Shown here in pieces: positions 3,742 to 43,568 of a stretch of 64,000 nt of DNA. Position 1 is the first letter of the stretch, and every line of letters starts with the position of its first letter. Where the stretch lies: the IMG/VR virus record IMGVR_UViG_3300028569_000019, positions 32,780 to 96,779 of that record; one strand, 5' to 3'. A program made the translations under genes and the position numbers. The DNA comes from a virus. The notes beneath the pieces are model-generated. The model was not told the origin of the DNA. It made no database searches and saw nothing but the letters and a program-made list of their open reading frames with translations.

Positions 3742-5726
3742 TGCAACAATTAATTAACAAAACATTTAAAGCTAATACAAAAGACGTTTTGTATTTAAAT
3801 CGTGATTTCACTTCTTTAAAACAACAACTCATTGATTTTACCAAGCAGTATTATCCACAAAGTTATAAAGATTTTAGTGAAAGTTCACCAGGCCAAATCT
3901 TTATTGAACAAGCTTCTTTCGTTGGGGATGTATTATCATACTATACTGATTATCAATTCAAAGAAAGTTTTATTCAATTTGCAGGTGAACGTAAAAATAT
4001 TATAAACCAAGCTCAGTTTTTGGGATATAAGCCAAAGGTATCTTCAGTATCATCTACATATGTAGAGTTGTTTCAATTGTTGCCCGCAACTCGTACTTCG
4101 GGTGTTAATGGTGAATATATACCAGATGAAAGATATTGTTTGATTTTAAAACCATATACACAACTATCCAGTGTATCAGGTGTATCATTTATAGTTGAAG
4201 AAAGTGTAGATTTTAGTCAAGATACCTTATTCTCCCCAAGACAAATAAGTGTTTATAATCGTGACAACACAGGTGCTCCTTTATTTTACTTGGTGAAGAA
4301 AACTGCACAATGTTACTCTGGTCGAATAACTTCAAAAACATTTAGTATTGGCGACCCACAAGCATTTTTAAAAATAAAGTTAGATGAAACCGATGTAGTT
4401 AAGATAATCAGTGTGGTAGATTCTAATGGTAATAATTACTATGAAACTCAGTATCTAGCACAAGATACAATTCCACTATTAATCGATAATGTACCTCTTA
4501 ATAATCAAACATTATCACCATATAGAAATGAAACTCCTAAGATTTTAAAGTATCTACGAACTGAACGCAGATTCATCACAACAGTAGATCAAAATAATTT
4601 CACTTATATTCAATTTGGTGCAAATACGGAAAACTATGAAAACACTGTTATTATACCAAATCCAACTAATGTTGGCGTTGCATTATCCAATCTAAAGAAT
4701 TTAAATATATCTTTGGATGGTACAAACGTATTGAAAGCCAATTCATACGGTGTATCTCCATCAAATACAACATTGACCGTTAATTATGTTGTTGGCGGTG
4801 GTTTGGATTCAAATGTAAATTCTGAAGAAATAAATAAGATTGCTAGTACCGATTATTTAAATGACGTAACCAGTTTAACTGACAGTGAAGTTATTTTATT
4901 AAACAACATTAAAAATTCACTAAGAGTAAACAATCCACTTTCATCAACTGGTGGTAATGATGCAGAAACAGATGAAGAAATTCGTCAAAATGCTATATTA
5001 AACTTTTCTGCTCAAAACAGAATGGTTACTTCCGAAGATATTCTACTAAGAGTATACTCATTACCAACTTACTTGGGTAACATTTCAAAGGCATATGTTG
5101 AAAGTAATTCTAATAGACGCATTCAATACAACCAATTAATACAAGGTGTAGTAACTGAAGGTGGCAATGAAGCTTTGGATCTAAATCCATTAAATCCATT
5201 GGATAGAAGAAAGTTTTTGGAAGCAAGTAATCCATTTACTAACAATCTTTATTTGTTGGGATACGATGTCAATAAAAATTTAACAAAGTTGAATCCTGCC
5301 ACATTACAAAATTTAATAAGTTATCTTAATAACTTCAAGATACTCACAGATAAGATCAATATTATTGACGGTTATATTATCAATTTAGGGTTGGACTTTA
5401 AAATTACAGTATTTACCGGCTTCAATAAACGAGACGTATTAAATAACTGTATTCAGTCTGTAAAAAACTATTTGAATATTGATAATATGAGTTTTAACCA
5501 ACCAATAAATCTCAGTCAGCTCAATTTCGAAATAATGAAAAACGAAGGAGTTCAATCTGTAATTGAGTTGAAGATTAAGAATTTGACAATTGATGATGGG
5601 GATTATTCACCTATAGCATATAACGTAAGTATTGCTACACAAAATAATATTCTCTATCCATCAAAAGACCCATCAGTATTTGAAATTAAATATCCTGATA
5701 ACGATATAAAAGGATTGGTAGTATAA
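3741..5726 (+). CDS. gp6: Baseplate wedge subunit, gp6/baseplate-J-like
   Basis: YLNRDFTSLKQQL, DFSESSPG, GGNDAETDEEIR and QNRMVT motifs; follows gp25. Confidence 0.85.
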   Translation: MQQLINKTFKANTKDVLYLNRDFTSLKQQLIDFTKQYYPQSYKDFSESSPGQIFIEQASFVGDVLSYYTDYQFKESFIQFAGERKNIINQAQFLGYKPKVSSVSSTYVELFQLLPATRTSGVNGEYIPDERYCLILKPYTQLSSVSGVSFIVEESVDFSQDTLFSPRQISVYNRDNTGAPLFYLVKKTAQCYSGRITSKTFSIGDPQAFLKIKLDETDVVKIISVVDSNGNNYYETQYLAQDTIPLLIDNVPLNNQTLSPYRNETPKILKYLRTERRFITTVDQNNFTYIQFGANTENYENTVIIPNPTNVGVALSNLKNLNISLDGTNVLKANSYGVSPSNTTLTVNYVVGGGLDSNVNSEEINKIASTDYLNDVTSLTDSEVILLNNIKNSLRVNNPLSSTGGNDAETDEEIRQNAILNFSAQNRMVTSEDILLRVYSLPTYLGNISKAYVESNSNRRIQYNQLIQGVVTEGGNEALDLNPLNPLDRRKFLEASNPFTNNLYLLGYDVNKNLTKLNPATLQNLISYLNNFKILTDKINIIDGYIINLGLDFKITVFTGFNKRDVLNNCIQSVKNYLNIDNMSFNQPINLSQLNFEIMKNEGVQSVIELKIKNLTIDDGDYSPIAYNVSIATQNNILYPSKDPSVFEIKYPDNDIKGLVV

Positions 5727-31824: not shown

Positions 31825-33336
31825 TTGTTTATGACTGAACGAGGTAAAAAAATTAGAGAAGCATTTTTTAAAAAATACGGAGTATATCATCCATCACAGC
31901 TGCCTGGCGTTAAAGAAAAAATAAAACAAAAACGAGAGAGTGGTGCATATGATAATATGATTACGAAGATGAAAAAAACAAAATTGGAAAAATATGGCGA
32001 TGAAAATTATTCAAACTTAGAAAAAGGAAAAAAAACAAAATTAGAAAAATACGGGGATGAAAATTTCAATAACAGAGAAAAAATGTTAAAAACCAATGTT
32101 GAAAAATATGGTATGAATGTATCTCCAAATACTCTTGAAAAAACAAAACAAAGAGCTAATAATGGAGAACTCGGTTTTAAGTCCGAGAAATACAAACAAT
32201 ATTTGGAGAATAATAATATTGACAATGTATCTCAATTATCCAGTGTAAGAGAAAAAAGAAAACTTCATAAAATTCAAGAATCTTTACATAATATTTTTGA
32301 AGGAAATCGATTGAAAGGTATAGTTGTCCCATTATTTAATAAAGATGAATATGTAGGTACGGAATATAATAATTTATATAAATTTAAATGTAGTGTATGT
32401 CATAACGAATTTGAAGATAATTTGTATTCTGGTAATATACCTAGATGTTTAATCTGCAATCCACACAATAGATTTAAATCTACAATTGAAACTGAAATAT
32501 TGAGTTTTTTACATTTACACGACGTTGTGACTAAACATCACGATAGAAATATATTAGACGGAGAAGAAATTGATATTTTAGTACCTCATTTGAATTTAGG
32601 CATAGAATGTGATGGAATATATTGGCACAGTGAACTTGCTGGTGGTAAAGATAAACATTATCATTTACATAAAACTAAGTTGTCACTTGATAAAAATATT
32701 CAATTGATGCATATATGGGATTGGGAATGGCGATGCAAACAAGATATAATAAAAAGCATTTTATTAAGTAAGATTGGTAAGTCCAAAAGAATATTTGCAC
32801 GTAAATGTGAAATAAAGCAAGTGATCAATGATGAAAAATCTGCATTTTTGATTGATAACCATATACAAGGAAATGACACATCATCTATTAGATTGGGATT
32901 ATACCACAATGATGTTTTGGTATCACTAATGACATTTGTTAAATCTAGATATGACAAAAAATATCAATATGAGTTATCTAGATATTGTAATATATTAAAT
33001 ACAAATGTAATAGGAGGCGCTTCTAAATTGTTCAATTATTTTATAAAAAATTACGATGTAAATTCGATTGTAACATATAGCGACCGAAGATTGTTTACTG
33101 GTAATTTATATAAACAAATTGGTATGTCGTTTGTAGATAACACTCCTTCTGGATATCACTATTTTCATAAAAATAAAGGAGTACCAATTGAAAGAAGCCA
33201 TTTTCAAAAACATAAATTAAAAGAAAAGCTTGAAAAATTTGATATTAATTTAAGTGAATGGCAAAATATGCAAATTAATGGCTATGATAGAATTTGGGAT
33301 TGTGGACATATGAAATTTAACTGGAATCGTAAATGA
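31825..33336 (+). CDS. Hef-like free-standing homing endonuclease (likely start ATG 31831)
   Basis: KTKLEKYGDEN repeats, CxxC pairs, EIDI..LGIECDGIYWHS (Vsr/DUF559-like) and GGASKL..TYSDRR..IWDCG C-terminus. Confidence 0.8.
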   Translation: MFMTERGKKIREAFFKKYGVYHPSQLPGVKEKIKQKRESGAYDNMITKMKKTKLEKYGDENYSNLEKGKKTKLEKYGDENFNNREKMLKTNVEKYGMNVSPNTLEKTKQRANNGELGFKSEKYKQYLENNNIDNVSQLSSVREKRKLHKIQESLHNIFEGNRLKGIVVPLFNKDEYVGTEYNNLYKFKCSVCHNEFEDNLYSGNIPRCLICNPHNRFKSTIETEILSFLHLHDVVTKHHDRNILDGEEIDILVPHLNLGIECDGIYWHSELAGGKDKHYHLHKTKLSLDKNIQLMHIWDWEWRCKQDIIKSILLSKIGKSKRIFARKCEIKQVINDEKSAFLIDNHIQGNDTSSIRLGLYHNDVLVSLMTFVKSRYDKKYQYELSRYCNILNTNVIGGASKLFNYFIKNYDVNSIVTYSDRRLFTGNLYKQIGMSFVDNTPSGYHYFHKNKGVPIERSHFQKHKLKEKLEKFDINLSEWQNMQINGYDRIWDCGHMKFNWNRK

Positions 33337-33352
33337 TTACTATTTATATATT

Positions 33353-33643
33353 ATGATACTATTAACAAGAATTATTGAAGATTTAACTAAACCACAGGTT
33401 AAAGAAGCAGTTGACCCATCTCTATTAAAATTAATAGATGAAGTTATTAATGATACAAACGTTTTAGTTGTTAATAATTTGAAAATGGTAAAGGATATTT
33501 TGTCAAAAGAACCAATTGACAAAGCTAAATTAGATGTGGCTCTAAGCAACTATAAACGTTATTTTAATAGAGACAATGGTGGTACACCCGAAGTAATTCG
33601 TGGTATGACTATGCAAAATAAACTAGACGAGTTATCAAAATGA
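33353..33643 (+). CDS. Hypothetical protein with shared N-terminal leader
   Basis: Preceded by TATTTATA; starts MILLTRIIE. Confidence 0.65.
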   Translation: MILLTRIIEDLTKPQVKEAVDPSLLKLIDEVINDTNVLVVNNLKMVKDILSKEPIDKAKLDVALSNYKRYFNRDNGGTPEVIRGMTMQNKLDELSK

Positions 33644-34425
33644 TTAGTTTAACCGATCTATTGTTAGAAGCCAAACTTCCTCAAAGCGAGCAAGATATGG
33701 ATCTTTATGCCCGCAAATACAAAAAGACTATAGATTATTTACGTACTAAAAACAAAGTACTATTACTAACTACTAGTAATAGATGGAGTCAACACAAAGA
33801 CGATGTTCCAAAGAGTACTCAATTAGCAATTAAGATACAAGAACTATTGGGTAAAGAAAAAGTCACATTGATTGAAGTACCTAGTTTAAATATAGCTCCT
33901 TGCGAAGGTAATGTTAGTAGCAATTTGAAGTACGATGGAAATCATTGTGGTGTAAAAGGTGCGTTGCTTAAAGATAAAGATAAGAATCCAACCGGATATC
34001 ATCGTTGTTGGGCAAGTTTAAATAATAAAAACGATGAACTTTGGAAGATTACCAAAGAACTATTTGAAAGTGATTGCGTTGTATTTTTTGCTAGTGTTAG
34101 ATGGGGTCAAGCCAATGGTTACTATCAGAAATTAATTGAAAGATTAACTTGGATTGAAAATAGACATTCTACATTGGGCGAAAAGAATGTTGTACAAGAT
34201 ATTGAATCTGGATTCATTGCAGTTGGACAAAACTGGCACGGTAAACAAGTTGTAGAAACACAAAGAGCTGTGTTGGGAGATTATTATAAATTTAAAACCC
34301 CAGATCAATTATTTTGGAATTGGCAATTTACACAAGATGATACAGACGAAACCAAACGTTCGTATGATAAATCGATCAGAGTATTTGATAAAACATTTTT
34401 AAAACCATATGATAAGACTAAATAA
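33640..34425 (+). CDS. Flavodoxin-fold / NADPH-FMN reductase (iron-sulfur flavoprotein/WrbA-like)
   Basis: VLLLTTSNR, IAPCEGNVS..HC..RCW and ESDCVVFFASVRWG...KLIERL motifs. Confidence 0.75.
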   Translation: MISLTDLLLEAKLPQSEQDMDLYARKYKKTIDYLRTKNKVLLLTTSNRWSQHKDDVPKSTQLAIKIQELLGKEKVTLIEVPSLNIAPCEGNVSSNLKYDGNHCGVKGALLKDKDKNPTGYHRCWASLNNKNDELWKITKELFESDCVVFFASVRWGQANGYYQKLIERLTWIENRHSTLGEKNVVQDIESGFIAVGQNWHGKQVVETQRAVLGDYYKFKTPDQLFWNWQFTQDDTDETKRSYDKSIRVFDKTFLKPYDKTK

Positions 34426-35263
34426 CATTTTAAGTGAAGTAATACAAGAAGGTGGTGCCGGAGGTCATAGGAATTTAGTTAATGAAAATAACGGCACTGT
34501 ATGTTGTGTAATTTGTAATAAATGGTTTGGTCAAATAACTAAAAACCATTTAAAATTTAAACATAACATTTCATTAGAAGAATATGTTCAAAAATATAAT
34601 GTTCCCACAATCGCGGAAAGTAAAAAAAATATCGGTGATAAAAACCCGATGAAAACTTATTTAAATAAAAATAAATGGGAAAAAATAATTAAATCTGAAG
34701 AACATAAGCAAAAACAACGAACGATATCTTTAAATCACATTTCTTCTTTATCGGAAGAAGAAAAGAAAAAATATAATGGTTGGAAAAATGATAATATAGA
34801 CAAAGATAATTTCAGAAAAAAAGTATCCGTGGGTGTTAAAAAAAGCTATGAAAATACAGAACTCCGAGTTTTGAGAAGTAATACTATAGGTTTAATTGGA
34901 AAGAAAAATTTATTAGAAAGATATAATGAAAAAATAAAAATGGGTGAATGGATTTCCCCGGAAAATAAAACCGATTATATTGGTTACAGAGATAGAGTAA
35001 GAAAACTTACAGACGAAAATTTTCAAAAACAGTTTTTAAATATAAAAAATGCTAAACTTAGAGGCAATGGTTGGGATTTAGATCATAAAATCAGTATTCA
35101 TTATGGTTTTAAAAATCATATACCTGAAGAGCATATATCACATATTAAAAATCTGGAAATGTTACCATCAAAAATAAATTATAAAAAAGGTAGTAATTGT
35201 TCTATGTCATACGAATCATTATTAGAATCAATAGAAAAGGAAAATTATGATAAAAATATCTAA
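34409..35263 (+). CDS. HNH homing endonuclease fused to a captured 20-aa N-terminus
   Basis: CVIC..HLKFKH zinc finger; WDLDHKISI...NLEMLPSKIN..KG HNH core; N-terminus ...EGGAGGH is duplicated in the next gene. Confidence 0.8.
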   Translation: MIRLNNILSEVIQEGGAGGHRNLVNENNGTVCCVICNKWFGQITKNHLKFKHNISLEEYVQKYNVPTIAESKKNIGDKNPMKTYLNKNKWEKIIKSEEHKQKQRTISLNHISSLSEEEKKKYNGWKNDNIDKDNFRKKVSVGVKKSYENTELRVLRSNTIGLIGKKNLLERYNEKIKMGEWISPENKTDYIGYRDRVRKLTDENFQKQFLNIKNAKLRGNGWDLDHKISIHYGFKNHIPEEHISHIKNLEMLPSKINYKKGSNCSMSYESLLESIEKENYDKNI

Positions 35264-36299
35264 ACTTTTAGTTTCTTTATTTGAAAATAAAAAACTATTA
35301 ACTTGTGGCGGGGCGGGAGGTCATATGGCACATCCATTTGATTTTGTTGATACTGGTGCTAAATTGGTAGATGTATTTGCGAAAGCAGTAAAGTCTTTGA
35401 AGCAAGGCGCCGGCAGTGTAAAGATTGACGGTGTTAATGCAAGTATCCGCATGGTAAACGGTCAATTTGTAATGGATCGTGGATCAGCAAAACCACTTGA
35501 TATCAAAGGAATGAGACCTGAAGATTTGGAGACAAGATTTGGGGCTGGTCACGGATTTGTTAATATAGGTGCTAAAGTTATTAATATTTTTGACGCTGCA
35601 GTTCCGTCTACGCAATCTGAATTGAAAACGCTTGGGTTACTAGATAATCCTAATATACTATTCAACATTGAATATGTAGAGGGACAAACAAATGTATTGG
35701 GATATGGTGAAATTGGAAACTTTTTAGCTATCCACGGATTAAAAGAAATTAAACCAAAAACATTTGGTAAAGATGGAAGTGTTAAATCAAGAGAAGCCGT
35801 TGAAATACCATATGATAAAACAGCAATGCAGTCTTATATAAACAAATTAAATAAGGTTGCTATGAAGAGTGGTTTTAAGGTATTGGGTAGCATTGACACT
35901 ACTTTCAAATCAGAACCAAAACTAGCAAGCGTTTTGACGCAGCCAGTTACATTGTATCCTACTGGCGAAGCTGTAACTAAGTCTTTGAAAGATTGGTTAA
36001 AAGGATTAAAGTTTAAAACTCCTCTTATTACACGTGAACAATTTTTGAAGGCGGTTGATAGTAAGAATATCAGTCAAGAGTTTCCAGGTCAAGATGTAAA
36101 CAAAATAGTTAATGATACTATTGTTTATTTAACCACAATTAAATTGGGAGATGAAATATTAAAAAATGCTACCAGTGAAATTGGAGACTTGGAAAAACAC
36201 GAAGGTATAGTTGTAAGAGACTCAAGTATTTATGGCAATCCATTTAAAATTACAGGAAGTTTTATTATAAAAGGTCTTGGAAGTAAGTTTAAGAAATAA
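35247..36299 (+). CDS. ATP-dependent ligase/nucleotidyltransferase-fold protein
   Basis: KIDG (KxDG motif I), NIEY, EGIVVR (motif IV) and FKITG (motif V). Confidence 0.6.
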   Translation: MIKISKLLVSLFENKKLLTCGGAGGHMAHPFDFVDTGAKLVDVFAKAVKSLKQGAGSVKIDGVNASIRMVNGQFVMDRGSAKPLDIKGMRPEDLETRFGAGHGFVNIGAKVINIFDAAVPSTQSELKTLGLLDNPNILFNIEYVEGQTNVLGYGEIGNFLAIHGLKEIKPKTFGKDGSVKSREAVEIPYDKTAMQSYINKLNKVAMKSGFKVLGSIDTTFKSEPKLASVLTQPVTLYPTGEAVTKSLKDWLKGLKFKTPLITREQFLKAVDSKNISQEFPGQDVNKIVNDTIVYLTTIKLGDEILKNATSEIGDLEKHEGIVVRDSSIYGNPFKITGSFIIKGLGSKFKK

Positions 36300-36317
36300 A
36301 TTAAATACATATTTGTT

Positions 36318-36359
36318 ATGAAGAAAGCATCAGGTAAAAGTAATCTTTTATTTTTTTAA
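36318..36359 (+). pseudogene. Orphaned 5' stub (MKKASGKSNLLFF*) of gene 37168..37839
   Basis: GKSNL recurs, recoded, at 37207..37221 downstream of the endonuclease. Confidence 0.65.
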
Positions 36360-36374
36360 TCATATTTATTCTAT

Positions 36375-37178
36375 ATGAATGAAAGGTCTATGTCTAATAC
36401 CGGAATATATAAAATAAAAAATATCATCAACAACGATTGTTATATTGGAAGTGCATCATATACTTTTAATAAACGATGGAATACACATAAACACCAATTA
36501 AAAAATAATAAACATCATTCTATTATTCTTCAAAGAGCGTGGAATAAATACGGAGAAAACAATTTTAATTTTGAAATCATAGAATATTGTGAACCATCTG
36601 AATGTCTAATAAAAGAACAACATTATTTGGATAATTTAAAACCAAAATATAATATAAATCCTAATGCTGAAAGTCCACTTGGCAGAAAACTTAAACCAGA
36701 AGACTGTAAAAAAATATCAGATAGAACAAGTGGTATAAAAAATCCATTTTTTGGAAAACATCACACAGAAGAAACTAAAAAATTACTTTCGGAGAAGTTG
36801 AAAGGAAAAAATAAAGGAAAATTTTTGGCAGAAAAAAACCCAATGTATAAAAAAACACATTCTGATGAAAATAAAAAAATAATGTCTATATCTAGTCATC
36901 AATTTTGGAATAGTGAAATGGGAATAAAATTAAAAGAAATCAAATCAAAAGAAAAATTAGGAAAAACTAATCAATTTGCAAAAAAAGGAACAGAACATCC
37001 GAATTTTGTTTCTACAACATACAGATTCTTAAATAAACAATCAAATGAAGAATTCATGGGAACTATGTTTGATTTTAGAAAAAAATATAAACTGTGTTCA
37101 GATGTTTACTATCTATTAGATGGGAAAAAGAAAAAGTATAAACAATACAAAGGATGGGTTGTAAGTTATGAAAACTAA
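36375..37178 (+). CDS. GIY-YIG homing endonuclease with NUMOD3 motifs
   Basis: GIYKIKN...YIGSA; NPFFGKHHTEETKK; NPMYKKTHSDENKK. Confidence 0.92.
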   Translation: MNERSMSNTGIYKIKNIINNDCYIGSASYTFNKRWNTHKHQLKNNKHHSIILQRAWNKYGENNFNFEIIEYCEPSECLIKEQHYLDNLKPKYNINPNAESPLGRKLKPEDCKKISDRTSGIKNPFFGKHHTEETKKLLSEKLKGKNKGKFLAEKNPMYKKTHSDENKKIMSISSHQFWNSEMGIKLKEIKSKEKLGKTNQFAKKGTEHPNFVSTTYRFLNKQSNEEFMGTMFDFRKKYKLCSDVYYLLDGKKKKYKQYKGWVVSYEN

Positions 37179-37839
37179 TACTGGTAAAAATATAAAACTA
37201 AAAACGGGTAAATCTAATTTAGATATAGTTAGAAGTTATTTAAACGGGGAAAAGGCATTCGTACAAGTTGGCTATGATGCCAATTTAGAGAATAATAAAC
37301 GCAAAGAAGGTGACGAATGGGAGGACAGTCAAGGTCACAAATGGGTTTGGAAGAATAAAAGTAAACGTAGAGTTTCAAAACGTGCCACGATTATTAATGA
37401 ACAACGTTGTAAAACGTGTAATATGGACGTTCGATGGGGCAATTATTTGGACGACCGAGTTTGGCCCAAAACTGGATATTGTTATGATTGTTTTATCAAT
37501 TTTCAAACTGAACTAAAAATGATGGGAATGTTTGAAGTTTACAACGAACTACAGGATCTTAAAAACGAACGTAGTATTTTAGAAGATTACAAGAAAAAGT
37601 TTGAAGAAAGTAAAAAGTTCTGCGAAGAAAATAAAGATAAAGATGTTACATTTCTTGAGGAAGATGGATCGTTTGAAAAGTGGGATGGTAATATAGATTA
37701 CAATAAAATATTTGAAGATTTGACAAAGGATATAGGTGTCATTGACGTTCGATTGGAAGAATTGAATCTTAAAATAAAAGAGTACGAAGAGAAATATGAG
37801 TCAGCTAAATTTAAGAGAAATAATAAAGCAGGAGTATAA
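37168..37839 (+). CDS. Hypothetical Zn-binding protein upstream of terminase
   Basis: CKTC...CYDC plus a C-terminal coiled coil; overlaps the terL start. Confidence 0.65.
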   Translation: MKTNTGKNIKLKTGKSNLDIVRSYLNGEKAFVQVGYDANLENNKRKEGDEWEDSQGHKWVWKNKSKRRVSKRATIINEQRCKTCNMDVRWGNYLDDRVWPKTGYCYDCFINFQTELKMMGMFEVYNELQDLKNERSILEDYKKKFEESKKFCEENKDKDVTFLEEDGSFEKWDGNIDYNKIFEDLTKDIGVIDVRLEELNLKIKEYEEKYESAKFKRNNKAGV

Positions 37840-38629
37840 GAAGTGTATTGAGGATCCTATATACTTCATGAAGAAGTATGTTAAGATACAACATCCTATT
37901 AGAGGTACTGTTGGATTTGAACTTTATCCATTCCAAGAAGAAGCTTTACAAAACTTTGTTGATAATCAATTAAACATCGTTCTTAAGAGTCGTCAGATGG
38001 GTATCAGTACCCTTACAGCCGCTTATAGTTTGTGGTTAATGACATTTCATAATGATAAGAACATTCTTTGTATTAGTATTACGCAAGAAACAGCAAAAGA
38101 AATTGTCACTAAGGTAAGATTTGCGAATGACAATCTTCCGAGTTGGTTAAAAGTTCCTTGTGTAGAAGATAATAGATTATCATTGCGATTAAAGAACGGA
38201 TCTCAAATCAAAGCGGTTTCATCTGCTGGTACAGCTGGTCGTTCTTCTGCACTATCATTACTAATCATCGACGAAGCCGCATTTATCGATGGCATTGAAG
38301 AAATTTGGCTGTCGTCTCAATATACACTGTCTACTGGTGGTAGAGCTATTATACTAAGTACGCCGAACGGCGTTGGCAATTTCTTCCATAAAATTTGGGT
38401 TGAATCTGAAGAAGGCAAGAATAATTTTAAAACAATTAGATTACCTTGGCATTTACACCCAGAAAGAGATCAAACGTGGAGAGATAAACAAACTGAGTTG
38501 TCAGGAGTAAAAGGTGCAGCACAAGAATGTGATTGTCTATGGGGAGCGTCTACGATTAGAGTCAGAGATAAAACATCAGGAAAAGAATTTGATATTTCTT
38601 TAGAAAAATTGTATTCCGGAGAATTGTAA
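37796..38629 (+). CDS. terL: Terminase large subunit, N-terminal part + split intein N-fragment
   Basis: LYPFQ, KSRQMGIST (Walker A), LIIDEAAF (Walker B), LSTPNG; ends AQECD|CLWGAST... Confidence 0.95.
   Translation: MSQLNLREIIKQEYKKCIEDPIYFMKKYVKIQHPIRGTVGFELYPFQEEALQNFVDNQLNIVLKSRQMGISTLTAAYSLWLMTFHNDKNILCISITQETAKEIVTKVRFANDNLPSWLKVPCVEDNRLSLRLKNGSQIKAVSSAGTAGRSSALSLLIIDEAAFIDGIEEIWLSSQYTLSTGGRAIILSTPNGVGNFFHKIWVESEEGKNNFKTIRLPWHLHPERDQTWRDKQTELSGVKGAAQECDCLWGASTIRVRDKTSGKEFDISLEKLYSGEL
38534..38626 (+). mobile_element. Atypical split intein, IntN (31 aa)
   Basis: CLWGASTIRVRDKTSGKEFDISLEKLYSGEL: block A Cys1 followed shortly by a stop. Confidence 0.9.
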
Positions 38630-38650
38630 TCATATGTATTATACAAGAAT

Positions 38651-39403
38651 GTGATTGCAACCCATATGTGTGTACCTAAAAATTATGTAGCAGTCGGTTG
38701 GGATAAAATCAAGAAACAATTAAGTTGTGAAACTGATTTATATTCGTGTGAAGAAACCAAATCCGAATTGTTAAATGAAAATCATTATAAATTTTTATTT
38801 GGTCGTGCGAAGAATAGAACTCTGATAAAACAAAACCCAAAACTATATAAATCAATTCTTTTTCATACGCGTATTCTAGAAAATGCATTTAAACAACAAC
38901 AAAGTTACAAGGGATGGTATAATTTTTCTTATAGGATTCGTTTTATTGTTGAACATAATTACGATTTGACAAAATTAAAATGTCAATGTGGGAAGAAAAT
39001 AACATGGACGAAATATTGTCGTAGATGTCCGGAATATCATAAAACTCAAACTGGTAAAGTACATACTCCAGAAACAAAACAAAAAATGAGAGTATCCACA
39101 TTAAAGTATTTATCGGAAATAAAAGGTCAGATTATACCTCGTTATAATAAAAAATCAATACAACTAATTGAGGAATTTGGTAATACACATGGATATACAT
39201 TTAGACACGCTGAAAATGGCGGTGAAGTTTTTCTTAAAGAACTTGGTTATTTTCTAGATGCATATGATGAGAAAAATAATGTTGTGTTAGAAATATACGA
39301 AAAACGACACTACAAAAATGGTAAATTGAAACAAAGAGATTTTCAAAGAGAAAATGAAATTAAAAATTTGTTAGGATGTAAACTATTTACAATAGACATA
39401 TGA
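38651..39403 (+). CDS. Free-standing Vsr-like homing endonuclease between the split-intein halves
   Basis: CQC..CRRC, NUMOD3-like GKVHTPETKQKM and YFLDAYDEKNNVVLEIYEKRH. Confidence 0.8.
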   Translation: MIATHMCVPKNYVAVGWDKIKKQLSCETDLYSCEETKSELLNENHYKFLFGRAKNRTLIKQNPKLYKSILFHTRILENAFKQQQSYKGWYNFSYRIRFIVEHNYDLTKLKCQCGKKITWTKYCRRCPEYHKTQTGKVHTPETKQKMRVSTLKYLSEIKGQIIPRYNKKSIQLIEEFGNTHGYTFRHAENGGEVFLKELGYFLDAYDEKNNVVLEIYEKRHYKNGKLKQRDFQRENEIKNLLGCKLFTIDI

Positions 39404-39741
39404 TCGATCCAAATGTTAAACTGAATACTAAGTTTCAGATTTTGACTCCAACAGGTTACCAAGATTTTTTTGGAATGCGAAAAATAAAAAAGGATTGTTA
39501 CTATAAAATATTATTGAGTAATGGCAAAATAATAAAATGTTCGGACAATCATCCTTTTATATATAAAAATTCAGAACTACGCTCTCACGATATCAAAATC
39601 GGATCGAAAATATCGGGAGTAGATGGTGTAGATGTAGTTGTCATAACCATAGAAAAATTCGAAAATTCCATTGATTTATATGATATAGTAAACGTCTCCG
39701 ACGGCAATGTTTTTAATGTAGACGGAATTGTTTCACATAAT
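39400..39741 (+). mobile_element. Atypical split intein, IntC (114 aa)
   Basis: Block B CSDNHPF, block F LYDIVNV, block G VSHN, +1 Cys. Confidence 0.9.
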
Positions 39742-40593
39742 TGTGATTTTAGTACATCTGGTAATCAAGTTGTAAGTGTAGACGTTCTTGAGTTTTACAA
39801 ACAAACCTATCTAAAAGATCCCGTTGAAAAACGTGGGAATAATCAAGACTTATGGATTTGGGATTATCCCAATTATAGTAAAAATTATATATTGACAGCT
39901 GACTGCGCTAGAGGAGATGGTGGAGATTTTAGTGCATTCCACGTTATAGATATAGAAACAATGGAACAAGTAGCTGAATATAAAGGTCAGTTAACTACAA
40001 AAGATTATGGCAATTTATTGGTTAGTGTTGCTACTGAATACAATAATGCTTTGTTGGTAGTGGAAAATAACAATATAGGATGGGCTACATTACAACAAAT
40101 TATTGATAGAGATTATCAAAATACGTTTTATAGTGCGGCTGATTTGACTGTGGTTGATGTAGAAAAAACATATACCAATAAACTTAATTCGGCTGATAAG
40201 AAATTAGTAGCTGGATTTACAACAACTAGCAAAAATAGACCTTTAATTATAAGTAACTTGGAATTATTTTTTAGACAAAAACAAGTTATAATGAAATCCA
40301 AAAGACTATATGAGGAACTGAATGTATTCATTTGGAACGGACCAAAAGCAGAAGCTATGAAGGGATACAATGACGATTTGGTTATGGCAATTGGAATTGG
40401 TTTGTGGGTACGTGAAACTGCTTTGAAACTTAGAAACGAACAAATATCTTATAATAAGGCTATCGTTTCAAAAATATCAAAAGTAACAAGTCAAATTTCA
40501 ATTCCAAAACAAGTGAGTGCTGTACCCGATCACCACAAAACTATGGATTTCACCGTTAATGACAAAAAAGAAAGTTTAACTTGGTTGTTGTAA
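39400..40593 (+). CDS. terL: Split intein C-fragment + terminase large subunit nuclease domain
   Basis: IntC ends IVSHN|CDFSTSG; then ADCARGDGGDFS, VENNNIG and NDDLVMA RNase H-fold motifs. Confidence 0.95.
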   Translation: MIDPNVKLNTKFQILTPTGYQDFFGMRKIKKDCYYKILLSNGKIIKCSDNHPFIYKNSELRSHDIKIGSKISGVDGVDVVVITIEKFENSIDLYDIVNVSDGNVFNVDGIVSHNCDFSTSGNQVVSVDVLEFYKQTYLKDPVEKRGNNQDLWIWDYPNYSKNYILTADCARGDGGDFSAFHVIDIETMEQVAEYKGQLTTKDYGNLLVSVATEYNNALLVVENNNIGWATLQQIIDRDYQNTFYSAADLTVVDVEKTYTNKLNSADKKLVAGFTTTSKNRPLIISNLELFFRQKQVIMKSKRLYEELNVFIWNGPKAEAMKGYNDDLVMAIGIGLWVRETALKLRNEQISYNKAIVSKISKVTSQISIPKQVSAVPDHHKTMDFTVNDKKESLTWLL

Positions 40594-40619: not shown

Positions 40620-43568
40620 ATGTCAGATAAATCTTTTCAAGAATTAAGAAGTCGATCTTTGTTTGCTCGTTTGAAGCGTTTGTTTTCAAACGACGTGATT
40701 GTTCGTAACGTTGGTGGTAAAAAATTAAAAGTTATCGACACTGATGAAATTCAGTATGCTACAGATCGTAATAGTTTAAGAGACCGTTTTAATAGATTAC
40801 GTACAACTTCGTATAATCAATATACAAGAGATTTCAATTTATCATATCAAAGTAGTCGTGTTGAATTGTTTAGAGATTATGACTGTGTTGGTCCTGATAC
40901 AATCATACCTCTACCAGACGGTACTAAACCAACTATAGCTCAACTAACGGAAAGATATAAAGATAATCCCCAGGAAAGATTCTATGTATTTTCATACGAT
41001 CACGAAACTGACAGTATAAAATTAGGCAAAGCATATCATCCTAGAAAGAAAGAAGGCGGTCCTAGAAAGTGTTGGAAAGTAATTTTTGACAATGGACAAT
41101 TCGTAATAGGAAGTGCCGGACATCCATTTTTAATGAGAAGTGGAGAATATAAAAAATTAGAAGATCTATCAATTGGCGAGTCTGTGATGCCTTTTTATCA
41201 AAAAGATTTCTACAACAATGGATATAGAAGTTTGTATAATTTTAGTAAAGGATGGCAAACAGAACATAAAATAGTCGCCGAACAATTTAATCGGGGATTA
41301 AGTTCTAACGAAGTTGTTCATCATAAAAATTTTGATAAAACAAACAATCTTCCGGAGAATTTACATATAATGTTAGACTCCGATCATAGAAAATTTCATG
41401 CGGAATTAAATAATAAAATTATTTGGTCGGTTGAAAATAAACAAAATACGTTAGAAAAGATCAAAAATTCAACTGGATATAAAAATAGAAAATTTCACAG
41501 ATGGAACGGAGATCGAGTTGATATAAACAATCCTTTTTATGGAAAACAACATTCCGTTGAATCAAATGATAAAAGATCTAATACTTTAAAAGAAATATTT
41601 GTTAATAGAGATCAAACCGGAAAAAACAATCCAAAATATAGAGATGATTTAACAATTGATATATTAAAAATTAAAGCGTTAAATTATTACAAACAACACG
41701 GAAAATTAACATCTTGGGGATTAGTTAAAGATTTAAATTGTGACTATTCGGTTCTACAGAATCGTTTGAAGAAAAATAACACCGAGTGGAAATCATTTAA
41801 AAATTATATAGAGTCATCTCTTAATCACAAAATCGTTGATATTGAGTATATAGGAGAAATAGAAGTTTACGATGTTACTGTTGAAAAGTATCAGAATTTT
41901 GCTACGGATTCTTGTTTCGTCCATAATACGATGGATATGGATCCAATTCTTGCATCTGCATTGGACATTTATGCGGATGAATGTACAACCCGAAATGAAA
42001 TGGGTGAAGTAATTCACATCAAATCTTCCAACGACGAAATTAAGAATATTCTACACAATTTGTTCTATGATATTCTAAATATCGAATTTAACCTGTGGAG
42101 TTGGGCACGTTGTATGGTTAAATATGGCGATTTTTACCTACGTCTTCATATTAGTCCTGATTATGGTGTTTATTTGGTAGAACCATTGAGTACATATTAT
42201 GTAACTCGCGTAGAAAATGCACATTTAACCAATAAAAACTTTGTTAAATTTCAAGTCAATTTGCCATACGGAAACAAATTGGAAGATTTGGAAAACTATC
42301 AAATTGCACATTTTAGATTATTGAGTGACAGTAACTTTCTACCATATGGAAAAAGTACTTTAGAAGGTGCTCGCCGTGTATGGAAACAATTGAGTTTGAT
42401 GGAAGACGCAATGTTAATTCATCGTATCATGCGTGCTCCTGAAAAACGTATTTTCAAAGTTGATATTGGTAATATTCCACCAAATGAAGTTGATAATCAT
42501 ATGCAACGCATTATGGACCAAATGAAAAAGGTTCCATATTTGGATCAACAAACTGGAGATTATAATTTAAGGTTCAATCTACAAAACATGGTAGAGGACT
42601 TTTTCTTGCCAGTTCGTGGTAGTGATAGTGGCACTAGTATTGAAAATTTATCTGGATTGGAGTGGACAGGTACAGATGATATTGAGTACCTTCGTAATAA
42701 AATGATGGCAGCACTTAAGATACCCAAAGCATTTTTGGGGTATGACGAATCTTTGAGTGGTAAAGCTACATTGGCAGCTGAAGACATAAGATTTGCTAGA
42801 ACAGTACAACGTATACAACGTATTATGGTTAGCGAATTGAATAAAATTGCAGTTATTCATTTGTACAGTCAAGGATATAGAGATGAGTCGTTGGTAGATT
42901 TTACTCTTGAGTTGACTAATCCATCCACTATCTTTGAAAAAGAAAAAATAGATGTATACAAGAGTAAAGTTGAACTTTGCAAAGATATGCAAGAACAAAA
43001 AGTATTTTCTAAGAAGTGGATTTATGAAAATATTTTCGGTTTGTCAGATCAAGATATGATATCCTTACAAAAGCAACTAATTGACGATGCTAAAGGAAAT
43101 TATAGATTTAAGCAAATCGAAGAAGACGGTAATGATCCAGCTTTGTCATTTTTAAATAAAAACGATAAAGGCGACCAAGGCGCAGGCGGTGGATCTGAGC
43201 CAGGTCCAGGAGCTGAACCTGGAGCAAATTCTGCTCCAGAAAGTGGAGCTGAAGCTGGTGGGGCGGGTGATACAGAAACTAAAGCTGGTGCTGAAAAATC
43301 AACTCCACCAAAATTAGCAGAAAAACGTGATCAAACAGGCAGAAAAGATGCTAGTAAATATCCATTTGGAGAAGATCCGTTTGGCACATTGGAAAACAAT
43401 AGACGCAGTGATTTATCAGTATCACACAAATATAAGAATGGATCTCCGTTGTCATTGGAGTCTATTAAGGGATTGACCGATTTGTTGAAAACATTGGATC
43501 AAGAAAAAGAAATTTTAAGAGAAGGAAACGAAAAATCTTTTATGGATGAACAAAATATAAAAGAATAG
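40620..43568 (+). CDS. gp20: Portal protein containing an intein
   Basis: MDMDPILASALDIYADE, LMEDAMLIHRIMRAPEKRIFKVDIGN, EDFFLPVRG and ALKIPKAFL motifs. Confidence 0.95.
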   Translation: MSDKSFQELRSRSLFARLKRLFSNDVIVRNVGGKKLKVIDTDEIQYATDRNSLRDRFNRLRTTSYNQYTRDFNLSYQSSRVELFRDYDCVGPDTIIPLPDGTKPTIAQLTERYKDNPQERFYVFSYDHETDSIKLGKAYHPRKKEGGPRKCWKVIFDNGQFVIGSAGHPFLMRSGEYKKLEDLSIGESVMPFYQKDFYNNGYRSLYNFSKGWQTEHKIVAEQFNRGLSSNEVVHHKNFDKTNNLPENLHIMLDSDHRKFHAELNNKIIWSVENKQNTLEKIKNSTGYKNRKFHRWNGDRVDINNPFYGKQHSVESNDKRSNTLKEIFVNRDQTGKNNPKYRDDLTIDILKIKALNYYKQHGKLTSWGLVKDLNCDYSVLQNRLKKNNTEWKSFKNYIESSLNHKIVDIEYIGEIEVYDVTVEKYQNFATDSCFVHNTMDMDPILASALDIYADECTTRNEMGEVIHIKSSNDEIKNILHNLFYDILNIEFNLWSWARCMVKYGDFYLRLHISPDYGVYLVEPLSTYYVTRVENAHLTNKNFVKFQVNLPYGNKLEDLENYQIAHFRLLSDSNFLPYGKSTLEGARRVWKQLSLMEDAMLIHRIMRAPEKRIFKVDIGNIPPNEVDNHMQRIMDQMKKVPYLDQQTGDYNLRFNLQNMVEDFFLPVRGSDSGTSIENLSGLEWTGTDDIEYLRNKMMAALKIPKAFLGYDESLSGKATLAAEDIRFARTVQRIQRIMVSELNKIAVIHLYSQGYRDESLVDFTLELTNPSTIFEKEKIDVYKSKVELCKDMQEQKVFSKKWIYENIFGLSDQDMISLQKQLIDDAKGNYRFKQIEEDGNDPALSFLNKNDKGDQGAGGGSEPGPGAEPGANSAPESGAEAGGAGDTETKAGAEKSTPPKLAEKRDQTGRKDASKYPFGEDPFGTLENNRRSDLSVSHKYKNGSPLSLESIKGLTDLLKTLDQEKEILREGNEKSFMDEQNIKE
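40884..41927 (+). mobile_element. Cis intein (348 aa) with an HNH endonuclease
   Basis: RDYD|CVGPDT...SAGHPF...VYDVTV...FVHN|TMD; internal EHKIVAE..VVHHKNFDKTNNLPENL and a NUMOD3 motif. Confidence 0.93.

Follow-up and report, generated by a model that had tools for sequence, protein, structure and literature searches.

Interruption of an RNA-ligase-like phage gene by a putative homing-endonuclease cassette that carries a substitute 5' end

The IMG/VR record IMGVR_UViG_3300028569_000019 is 96.8 kb long at an estimated completeness of 29%, and comes from a jumbo myovirus of AT-rich DNA whose head genes are T4-like (portal phrog_213, major head protein phrog_138). The part analysed here, called the window, is the whole 64,000-nucleotide (nt) stretch at positions 32,780 to 96,779 of that record. 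In the window a gene for an RNA-ligase-like protein is interrupted after its twentieth codon by 856 nt, which hold most of an open reading frame (ORF) for a putative homing endonuclease and end in a second, diverged start for the interrupted gene. The sequencing runs listed as holding the stretch are metagenomes of freshwater lakes and sediment from 14 studies, and no RNA datasets are among them. Comparisons were made with 80 related IMG/VR loci (L-numbered) and with homologous proteins (P-numbered), the ligase homologues being surveyed as the 120 nearest proteins and the wider family as 150 cluster representatives. The features of the locus, in window coordinates, are these:

33640-34425 (+): upstream gene, 261 amino acids (aa), with a weak flavodoxin/FMN-reductase-like match; its last codons overlap the native ligase start
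34409-34468 (+): native 5' end of the ligase gene, a 14-codon leader and GGAGGH, now codons 1-20 of the nuclease ORF; homologues begin with the same peptide
34409-35263 (+): ORF of 284 aa for a putative homing endonuclease, sharing the frame of host codons 1-20 (phrog_5104, E 2.3e-15)
34469-35324 (+): 856-nt inserted cassette, comprising the nuclease body, the substitute leader and the second GGAGGH, delimited by the empty-site alleles L002 and L003
34469-34471 (+): AGG codon (R21), aligned with the nuclease ATG of relatives and of some fused copies
34493-34609 (+): Ros/MucR-like zinc-finger region, nuclease residues 29-67 (PF05443, E 1.8e-5 for the isolated segment)
35072-35191 (+): HNH-like motif block W-DLDHK-S-YGF ... 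NLEMLPSK-N-KKG, unchanged in all relatives, those from T4-like phages among them
35237-35241 (+): Shine-Dalgarno-like AAGGA within the nuclease ORF, 5 nt 5' of the substitute start
35247-35306 (+): substitute 20-codon leader (MIKISKLLVSLFENKKLLTC), found with four or more ligase backgrounds and in footprint alleles that lack the nuclease
35247-36299 (+): host gene as now expressed, 350 aa, a predicted RNA-ligase-like covalent nucleotidyltransferase (structural model, structural search, invariant motifs)
35307-35356 (+): second GGAGGH and first ligase-body codons, a 50-nt tract identical to L023-type alleles and probably a co-conversion tract
35322-35345 (+): invariant 24-mer CATATGGCACATCCATTTGATTTT, the lowest-diversity 24-nt segment, starting at the insertion point; candidate homing-site core

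The nuclease ORF begins MIRLNNILSEVIQE-GGAGGH, its Gly/His codons lying at 34451-34468, and the ligase ORF that follows begins MIKISKLLVSLFENKKLLTC-GGAGGH-MAHPFD with the second GGAGGH at 35307-35324, just as an earlier reading of the letters alone (the sequence-only reading) had described from the two ORFs. The ligase start lies in a different frame and shares 17 nt with the end of the nuclease ORF, and the two 18-nt GGAGGH stretches differ at three synonymous third positions (nt 3, 6 and 9: GGT/GGC, GGT/GGG, GCC/GCG). Some 115 of the 120 nearest ligase homologues are 344 aa long and start MI[KR]LNNIL.EVI.EGGAGGHMAHPFD, running uninterrupted into MAHPFD, so that their common start equals the first 20 residues of the nuclease ORF joined directly to the ligase body; the arrangement is not chance, and the earlier expectation that endonuclease-free homologues would be contiguous and start like 34409 holds. 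The insert is not embedded in an intron or an intein: cmscan with 4227 Rfam families at E <= 1 over 33600-37300 gave no group I or group II intron and no other match, the nuclease ORF has its stop codon at 35263, and the ligase ORF opens afresh at 35247, in another frame and with its own Shine-Dalgarno sequence and ATG. The gene is thus restored by a substitute 5' end with no splicing, as had been proposed. A scan for promoters and terminators gave signals no better than in shuffled sequence. The upstream 261-aa gene is syntenic across all related loci.

Presence or absence of the cassette at one precise site among near-identical alleles is directly seen. The nuclease is absent from all 80 related loci, and three of these (L002, L003 and L007) are identical to the window over the 88 nt ending at 34468. 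Relative to L002 and L003 the window has 34469-35324 in addition, exactly 856 nt, and these empty alleles bear out the claim that an element entered the coding sequence after GGAGGH. With nt 1 set at the start of that second GGAGGH, the right flank beyond nt 51 differs from L002/L003 at 22 of 984 positions (97.8% identity) and the first 51 nt differ from L002 at six (binomial P ~1e-3, a post hoc value). Alleles of the L023 type are identical to the window for the first 50 nt to the right of the cassette and then diverge, so the ligase gene of the window is a mosaic, L023-like for 50 nt and L002-like thereafter, and the L023-type segment is probably a short co-conversion tract. Contigs from public runs extend the comparison of filled and empty sites. 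Run X3 holds a filled contig with one difference from the window at depth 17.6, together with a second contig at depth 18.4 in which 34459 is joined to 35316, exactly 856 nt being skipped (10 letters are ambiguous). Of two runs from other studies, X4 holds a 2230-nt filled contig that spans 34290-36000, and X6 holds the filled form on one contig and an empty allele on another.

The insertion point falls at the edge of an unusually constant piece of DNA. Over the first 690 nt of the gene in 43 unique nuclease-free alleles, the least variable 24-nt segment is nt 58-81, CATATGGCACATCCATTTGATTTT, with a mean pi of 0.016 against 0.19 gene-wide, and this 24-mer opens with the last GGAGGH codon, that is, at the insertion point. 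Homing endonucleases typically insert beside invariant stretches that encode conserved motifs. The GGAGGH codons themselves occur in 18 versions among the 80 loci. Both versions of the window are found in nuclease-free alleles, and the alleles that have the substitute leader and lack the nuclease use a third. Recoding of GGAGGH by the element, which the sequence-only reading took to be a synonymous rewriting of the restored start, has for this reason to be given up. An arms race over the target site as the driver of GGAGGH codon variability is rejected too, since third-position diversity there (0.42-0.62) equals that at the other Gly codons of the gene (mean 0.45).

The two leaders have different distributions. 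The native copy is identical to that of L002/L003, and of the 120 relatives about 115 lack the substitute leader and a few have it. A hand count gives 18/24 identity between the two over the first 24 nt. The substitute leader ends LL-x-C-GG as in the distant family members P0136 and P0143, and so probably derives from the start of a diverged homologue and travels with the nuclease. It stands on at least four ligase backgrounds, clusters at 90% identity mixing both leader types, and a search with its DNA pattern found only L063 (= L082, L083) and L084. L063 has the substitute leader, no nuclease, and a 17-codon relic composed of the first seven native codons and the last codons of the nuclease, placed between the upstream gene and the substitute start; in L084 the nuclease is cleanly deleted and the substitute leader is kept; the 366-aa ligase P0301 opens with the native leader as far as EGG and passes in frame into the remainder of the substitute leader. 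These three are stages of the usual cycle of invasion, decay and loss, and since nuclease-free alleles use the substitute leader as their only start, that leader suffices as a start for the gene.

For the host protein, Pfam, PHROGs and NCBIfam gave no significant family (Pfam RNA_ligase reaches only E 0.12), tblastn of the ligase against the phage collection gave no match, and Foldseek of its model against PDB gave none at E <= 0.001, the weak list being mostly RNA ligases. The AlphaFold2 (AF2) model, built on 44 homologues, has a predicted local distance difference test (pLDDT) score of 92.5, residues 1-21 alone being poorly defined. T4 Rnl1 (RNA ligase 1) tops the structural search (VIA Z 8.7, root-mean-square deviation 5.5, 196 aligned), and the next 27 rows, at middling Z values, are all RNA ligases, DNA ligases or capping enzymes. 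In the 44 sequences K59-x-D61-G62 (motif I, KxDG), E319-G320 and K334 (motifs IV and V) are invariant. From the fold, the ligase and capping-enzyme neighbours and these motifs the product is predicted to be an RNA-ligase-like covalent nucleotidyltransferase. The 150 cluster representatives share the hallmark E-GG-A-[AG]-G-H-M-x-H-P-F-D, with some members starting MGGAAGHM and a few distant ones having Cys in place of Glu before GG, as the substitute leader does. The EGGA[AG]GHMxHPFD ligase-like domain is often C-terminal in proteins of 500-1280 aa (P0125-P0274), whose N-terminus resembles a cytidylyltransferase/NMNAT-type nucleotidyltransferase (…YPGRFQPF.KHH…), and the ligase-like part falls under no Pfam family.

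Relatives of the nuclease are few, only four related clusters being found among 5.8 billion proteins, and they bear on where its translation starts. In three more distant clusters (82, 73 and 64% identity) the start Met aligns to window residue 21. Within the cluster at 90% identity or more, residue 21 is Met in P0275 (12 contigs), P0281 and P0286, and Arg in the window (P0279), P0121 and P0283; forms of 260-264 aa are also called, from the Met at aligned residue 21. The nuclease initiator codon thus coincides with the Met21 codon of the host gene, and it is because of this coincidence that the nuclease is in frame with the first 20 host codons. The host Gly-Gly codons supply, as read from the sequence, a GGAGG 4 nt upstream of the Met21 ATG that resembles a Shine-Dalgarno sequence. 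In the window no in-frame ATG, GTG or TTG lies between the host ATG and nuclease residue 81, and a product that contains the zinc finger must therefore start at the host ATG; the obligate 20-residue fusion is specific to the allele group of the window. The statement that the endonuclease took the first 20 codons of the gene is accordingly right for the window, with its AGG and its fused ORF, and does not extend to the relatives that start at Met21 or to the fused copies, at 90% identity or more, that keep the ATG. Near-identical copies (90% or more) sit behind four host leader variants.

What the nuclease may be is suggested by a motif. Its only family match besides a sub-threshold zinc finger is phrog_5104, whose function is unassigned; PF05443 (Ros/MucR-type) scores just below the Pfam gathering score, and the Ros finger aligns weakly to PDB 2jsp, the remaining phmmer matches against PDB being noise. 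Relatives of its C-terminal part occur sporadically in T4-like phages, as free-standing genes that lie between the gene for the sheath and the gene for the tube, and six relatives share an invariant DH-x-S-x2-YG ... NLE-x6-N-x2-K, which fits the HNH pattern by eye. The putative His-Me/HNH assignment comes from this motif, and the HNH label given on first reading keeps that much and gains no confirmation from profiles or fold. A language-model neighbour search places the protein by a cluster with 88% HNH members (score 0.92), which is a lead only. NCBIfam gave no match; a hidden Markov model of the C-terminal block, run against six-frame translations of the genome with its genuine HNH ORFs, matched only itself; and no relative emerged from scans of IMG/VR and of metagenome contigs that took the nuclease or its alignment as query, near-identical records possibly lying outside the scans.

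For the anatomy, the empty and filled polymorphism, the mosaic flanks, the several backgrounds and the loss footprints described above, the explanation which we consider probable is that a free-standing homing-endonuclease cassette of 856 nt was copied into the ligase-like gene after codon 20, at the 5' edge of the most invariant DNA stretch of that gene. The cassette would have two parts. The first is the nuclease ORF, whose initiator would coincide with the host Met21 codon; in the window allele the change of ATG to AGG would leave the nuclease to be made only from the host start, with a 20-residue N-terminal extension. The second, at the 3' end and partly inside the nuclease ORF, would consist of the Shine-Dalgarno sequence, the ATG, the diverged 20-codon leader and the second GGAGGH, and would re-create a complete ligase cistron of 350 aa instead of 344, with no RNA or protein splicing required. 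We infer nuclease activity, a cut site, immunity and homing as follows. Spread would most likely occur when an empty allele is cleaved during co-infection and repaired from a filled one, which would account for the short co-converted tract, some 50 nt long, to the right. Protection of the filled allele would come from the foreign leader that now stands to the left of the retained 24-mer. Later loss by deletion may then leave the substitute leader as the only start of the gene.

Several results weigh against this explanation. The Pfam HNH models PF01844 and PF13392 do not match the nuclease even at E <= 10, and they do match other ORFs in the genome. The AF2 model of the nuclease (5 sequences) is unusable at pLDDT 41, the nuclease-family profile has no match among PDB sequences at E <= 10, and hhalign against a genuine HNH of the genome aligned only NLEML/NLRLL (E 0.36, not significant). 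The ancestral arrangement of the nuclease relatives (P0122-P0124 and the 260-aa forms) is deduced from proteins only, and the P value for the co-conversion tract is a post hoc one. Finally, in four related loci a J-domain gene sits at the same spot with the start duplicated and no nuclease involved.

That J-domain (HPD motif) ORF, of about 220 aa, lies at the ligase start in L018 (2085-2775), L010 (2915-3605), L011 (3325-4003) and L017 (3310-4003), at exactly the position of the nuclease in the window. It starts with the first 8-9 ligase codons (MIRLNNIL...), after which the native start is re-created, so that some 27 nt are directly repeated. In this phage group, then, gene starts are hot spots of insertion. 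A further case lies downstream in the window itself:

36318-36359 (+): orphan stub MKKASGKSNL-LFF and stop, the native start of the next gene cut by a GIY-YIG insertion, as judged from nuclease-free loci
36375-37178 (+): GIY-YIG/NUMOD3 endonuclease gene with its own start (PF01541 2.9e-8; PF07460 4.1e-13)
37168-37839 (+): downstream gene, with substitute start MKTNTGKNIKLKT and then repeated GKSNL (from the sequence and tblastn)

Nuclease-free loci begin the downstream gene with MKKASGKSNLSIVKDYL... at the position of the stub and continue uninterrupted, and in the window it restarts MKTNTGKNIKLKT-GKSNL-DIV... with a new 13-residue leader. By tblastn, loci without the nuclease match this gene from residue 9 onwards, and loci that bear the GIY-YIG gene, only 3 of the 80, match it from residue 1. 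The arrangement, over 36318-37220, reads as a second 5'-replacement event about 1 kb downstream, of the same design and with an unrelated nuclease family. Unlike the 284-aa nuclease ORF, the GIY-YIG nuclease is not fused to the stub. As a separate observation, L045 has about 600 nt extra between its ligase and GIY-YIG genes (5050-5650), and its ligase has a 6-aa insertion (356-aa or 350-aa forms, cluster P0059).

Whether the nuclease of the window is still a working element bears on the first alternative, namely that it is decaying, with the AGG at codon 21 as the first inactivating step and the 20-residue fusion an accident of no function. The relatives do start at the aligned Met, and P0275, the fused variant found on the most contigs (12), keeps the ATG with the Shine-Dalgarno-like GGAGG 4 nt upstream. 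Yet the ORF is intact across 284 codons, and copies with R21 stand behind three host leader variants and recur with few differences in the runs of several studies, which suggests that the fused form is still spreading. On balance decay is unlikely, if not negligibly so.

The second alternative needs no nuclease at all. The ORF could be a passive insertion (a 'moron') that arrived by illegitimate recombination, or by duplication of local sequence, at a gene start prone to recombine, and that has since spread through ordinary phage recombination. The J-domain insertions with their start duplication keep this view alive, the phage population is highly mosaic around the locus, and the nuclease fold is unconfirmed. 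Against it stand the presence of the same cassette on several diverged backgrounds with short flank conversion, its placement exactly at the most invariant 24-mer, the invariant His-Me-like motif and zinc finger of the ORF, the sporadic free-standing inserts in T4-like phages to which the ORF is related, and the bona fide GIY-YIG gene next door with the same design. Taking these together, we think passive insertion improbable.

A third proposal concerns the leader and not the insertion. T4 prohead protease cleaves at the consensus (L/I)-x-E, the native 14-residue leader ends I-Q-E, and a T4 gp21-type (S77) prohead protease is present in this phage (PF03420, E 3.3e-30); a leader of this kind could be a T4-type capsid-targeting propeptide, and the fusion would then bring the nuclease into virions. 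In the AF2 model the leader lies off the ligase fold and is disordered or helical, and the two upstream genes start with similar peptides. However, E-GG-A-GG-H belongs to a domain-proximal motif conserved across the family, many members begin MGGAAGH with no leader, many others carry the domain behind other domains, and the substitute leader has Cys for Glu before GG and is nevertheless the only start in nuclease-free alleles. Capsid targeting is on these grounds very doubtful. The broadest version, in which a portable substitute 5' end is a general invasion route for phage nucleases and the leader is a capsid-targeting propeptide that makes the nuclease virion-borne, is highly speculative and we give it little credence; were it true, such a nuclease could cut a rival genome at once on co-infection. 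As to a self-splicing intron or an intein, which would also lie within a coding sequence at a conserved motif, the Rfam result, the stop codon of the nuclease ORF, the independent restart of the ligase in another frame and the nuclease-free alleles that keep the substitute leader as their start make it scarcely credible.

The closest parallel to the favoured homing cassette comes from fungal mitochondria. In the gene hybrids made by mobile ORFs (mORFs), described for atp6 of Allomyces macrogynus (Paquin et al. 1994, cited in PMC3630166) and for atp6, atp9, cox2 and nad3 of Glomus (PMC3630166), an endonuclease ORF is inserted together with a foreign in-phase C-terminus of the gene, and the native C-terminus is left over (PMC3630166). 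In both systems an endonuclease ORF lies within a protein-coding gene and no intron is involved, a diverged foreign terminal segment arrives in phase and keeps the gene whole, the native segment stays as a duplicate that matches close relatives, and the ORF can be phased with the host. The mitochondrial hybrids replace the C-terminal or 3' end, whereas here it is the 5' end that is replaced, in a phage. The phage cassette, unlike an mORF, must therefore bring a Shine-Dalgarno sequence and a start codon, while the orphaned native piece supplies the translation start of the nuclease; its duplicated segment is only 20 codons, and its nuclease is of a putative His-Me type where the mORF enzymes are LAGLIDADG or GIY-YIG. 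In these terms the cassette appears to be the 5' mirror image of an mORF gene hybrid.

Among phage systems, the free-standing endonucleases of T4-like phages (Seg and Mob, which perform intronless homing) lie between genes, or split genes into polypeptides that reassemble (PMC2988022). They share with the cassette the lack of a promoter, the use of host expression signals, the overlap with neighbouring ORFs, a sporadic distribution and the co-conversion of flanking markers, and host expression signals embedded in the nuclease ORF favour retention. Seg and Mob genes are intergenic, in contrast to the cassette, which is intragenic, in frame with the first codons of its host and the supplier of a substitute N-terminus. 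Genes in pieces such as Aeh1 nrdA/mobE, T4 gene 39/60 with mobA and gene 43 of phage 25 (PMC2988022) also have a coding region interrupted by a free-standing nuclease gene and no splicing. Their halves reassemble as separate polypeptides, whereas in the ligase-like gene the orphaned 20-residue piece is replaced and is not reused by the host protein. A hidden HNH insertion in a methylase of phage ShiLan is likewise neither intron nor intein (PMC11855218), the HNH label of the present element being putative. The ShiLan insert is read through as an extra loop of the host protein with the HNH out of frame, whereas here the host gene restarts anew. Fractured genes, which combine split inteins with a free-standing endonuclease (PMC2677866), resemble the cassette in having an endonuclease gene between two pieces of a phage gene, and they need protein trans-splicing, which the cassette does not. 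A literature search of partial coverage brought up no case in phages of an element replacing the 5' end of the gene it enters.

An apparent fractured gene of this last kind lies 2.5 kb downstream, where the large terminase is seemingly split into three ORFs (37796-40593 of the window). The first holds the N-extein and closes with a short intein-like stretch (…AQECD-CLWGASTIRV…), the second is free-standing and of 250 aa, and the third opens with an intein-like C-part that ends …VSHN-CDFSTSG, an arrangement which resembles the split-intein fractured genes (PMC2677866). The 982-aa portal ORF (phrog_213, 40620-43568) has an internal HNH_3/HNH-endonuclease-like segment at residues ~187-278, the match lying near 41265-41387, which suggests an intein or an in-frame nuclease insertion. 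On the other side of the locus, a 503-aa ORF 3' of the sheath gene (31825-33336) has weak DUF7487 and restriction-endonuclease-like matches and is probably a mobile nuclease; in L084 a homologue of it lies directly upstream of the flavodoxin-like gene. Three consecutive genes have similar starts (33353 MILLTRIIEDL, 33640 MISLTDLLLEAKL and 34409 MIRLNNILSEVIQE), which may represent a shared N-terminal signal or a nucleotide pattern that favours recombination.

To our knowledge, homing endonucleases have been thought to enter coding sequences only under the shelter of an intron or an intein, or by splitting the host protein. The locus would represent a third solution in a phage, in which a spare gene end, translation start included, comes with the element. 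The evidence from nature is unusually complete, in that empty and filled sites, a probable conversion tract, several backgrounds and three kinds of loss footprint are all at hand. Events of this sort yield alternative N-termini and orphan stubs, which confuse gene calling and pangenome clustering in phages. The invariant 24-mer is a concrete candidate target for a new putative nuclease family (phrog_5104), and the likeness of the design to the mORF hybrids, mirrored at the 5' end, suggests convergent solutions in very different genomes.

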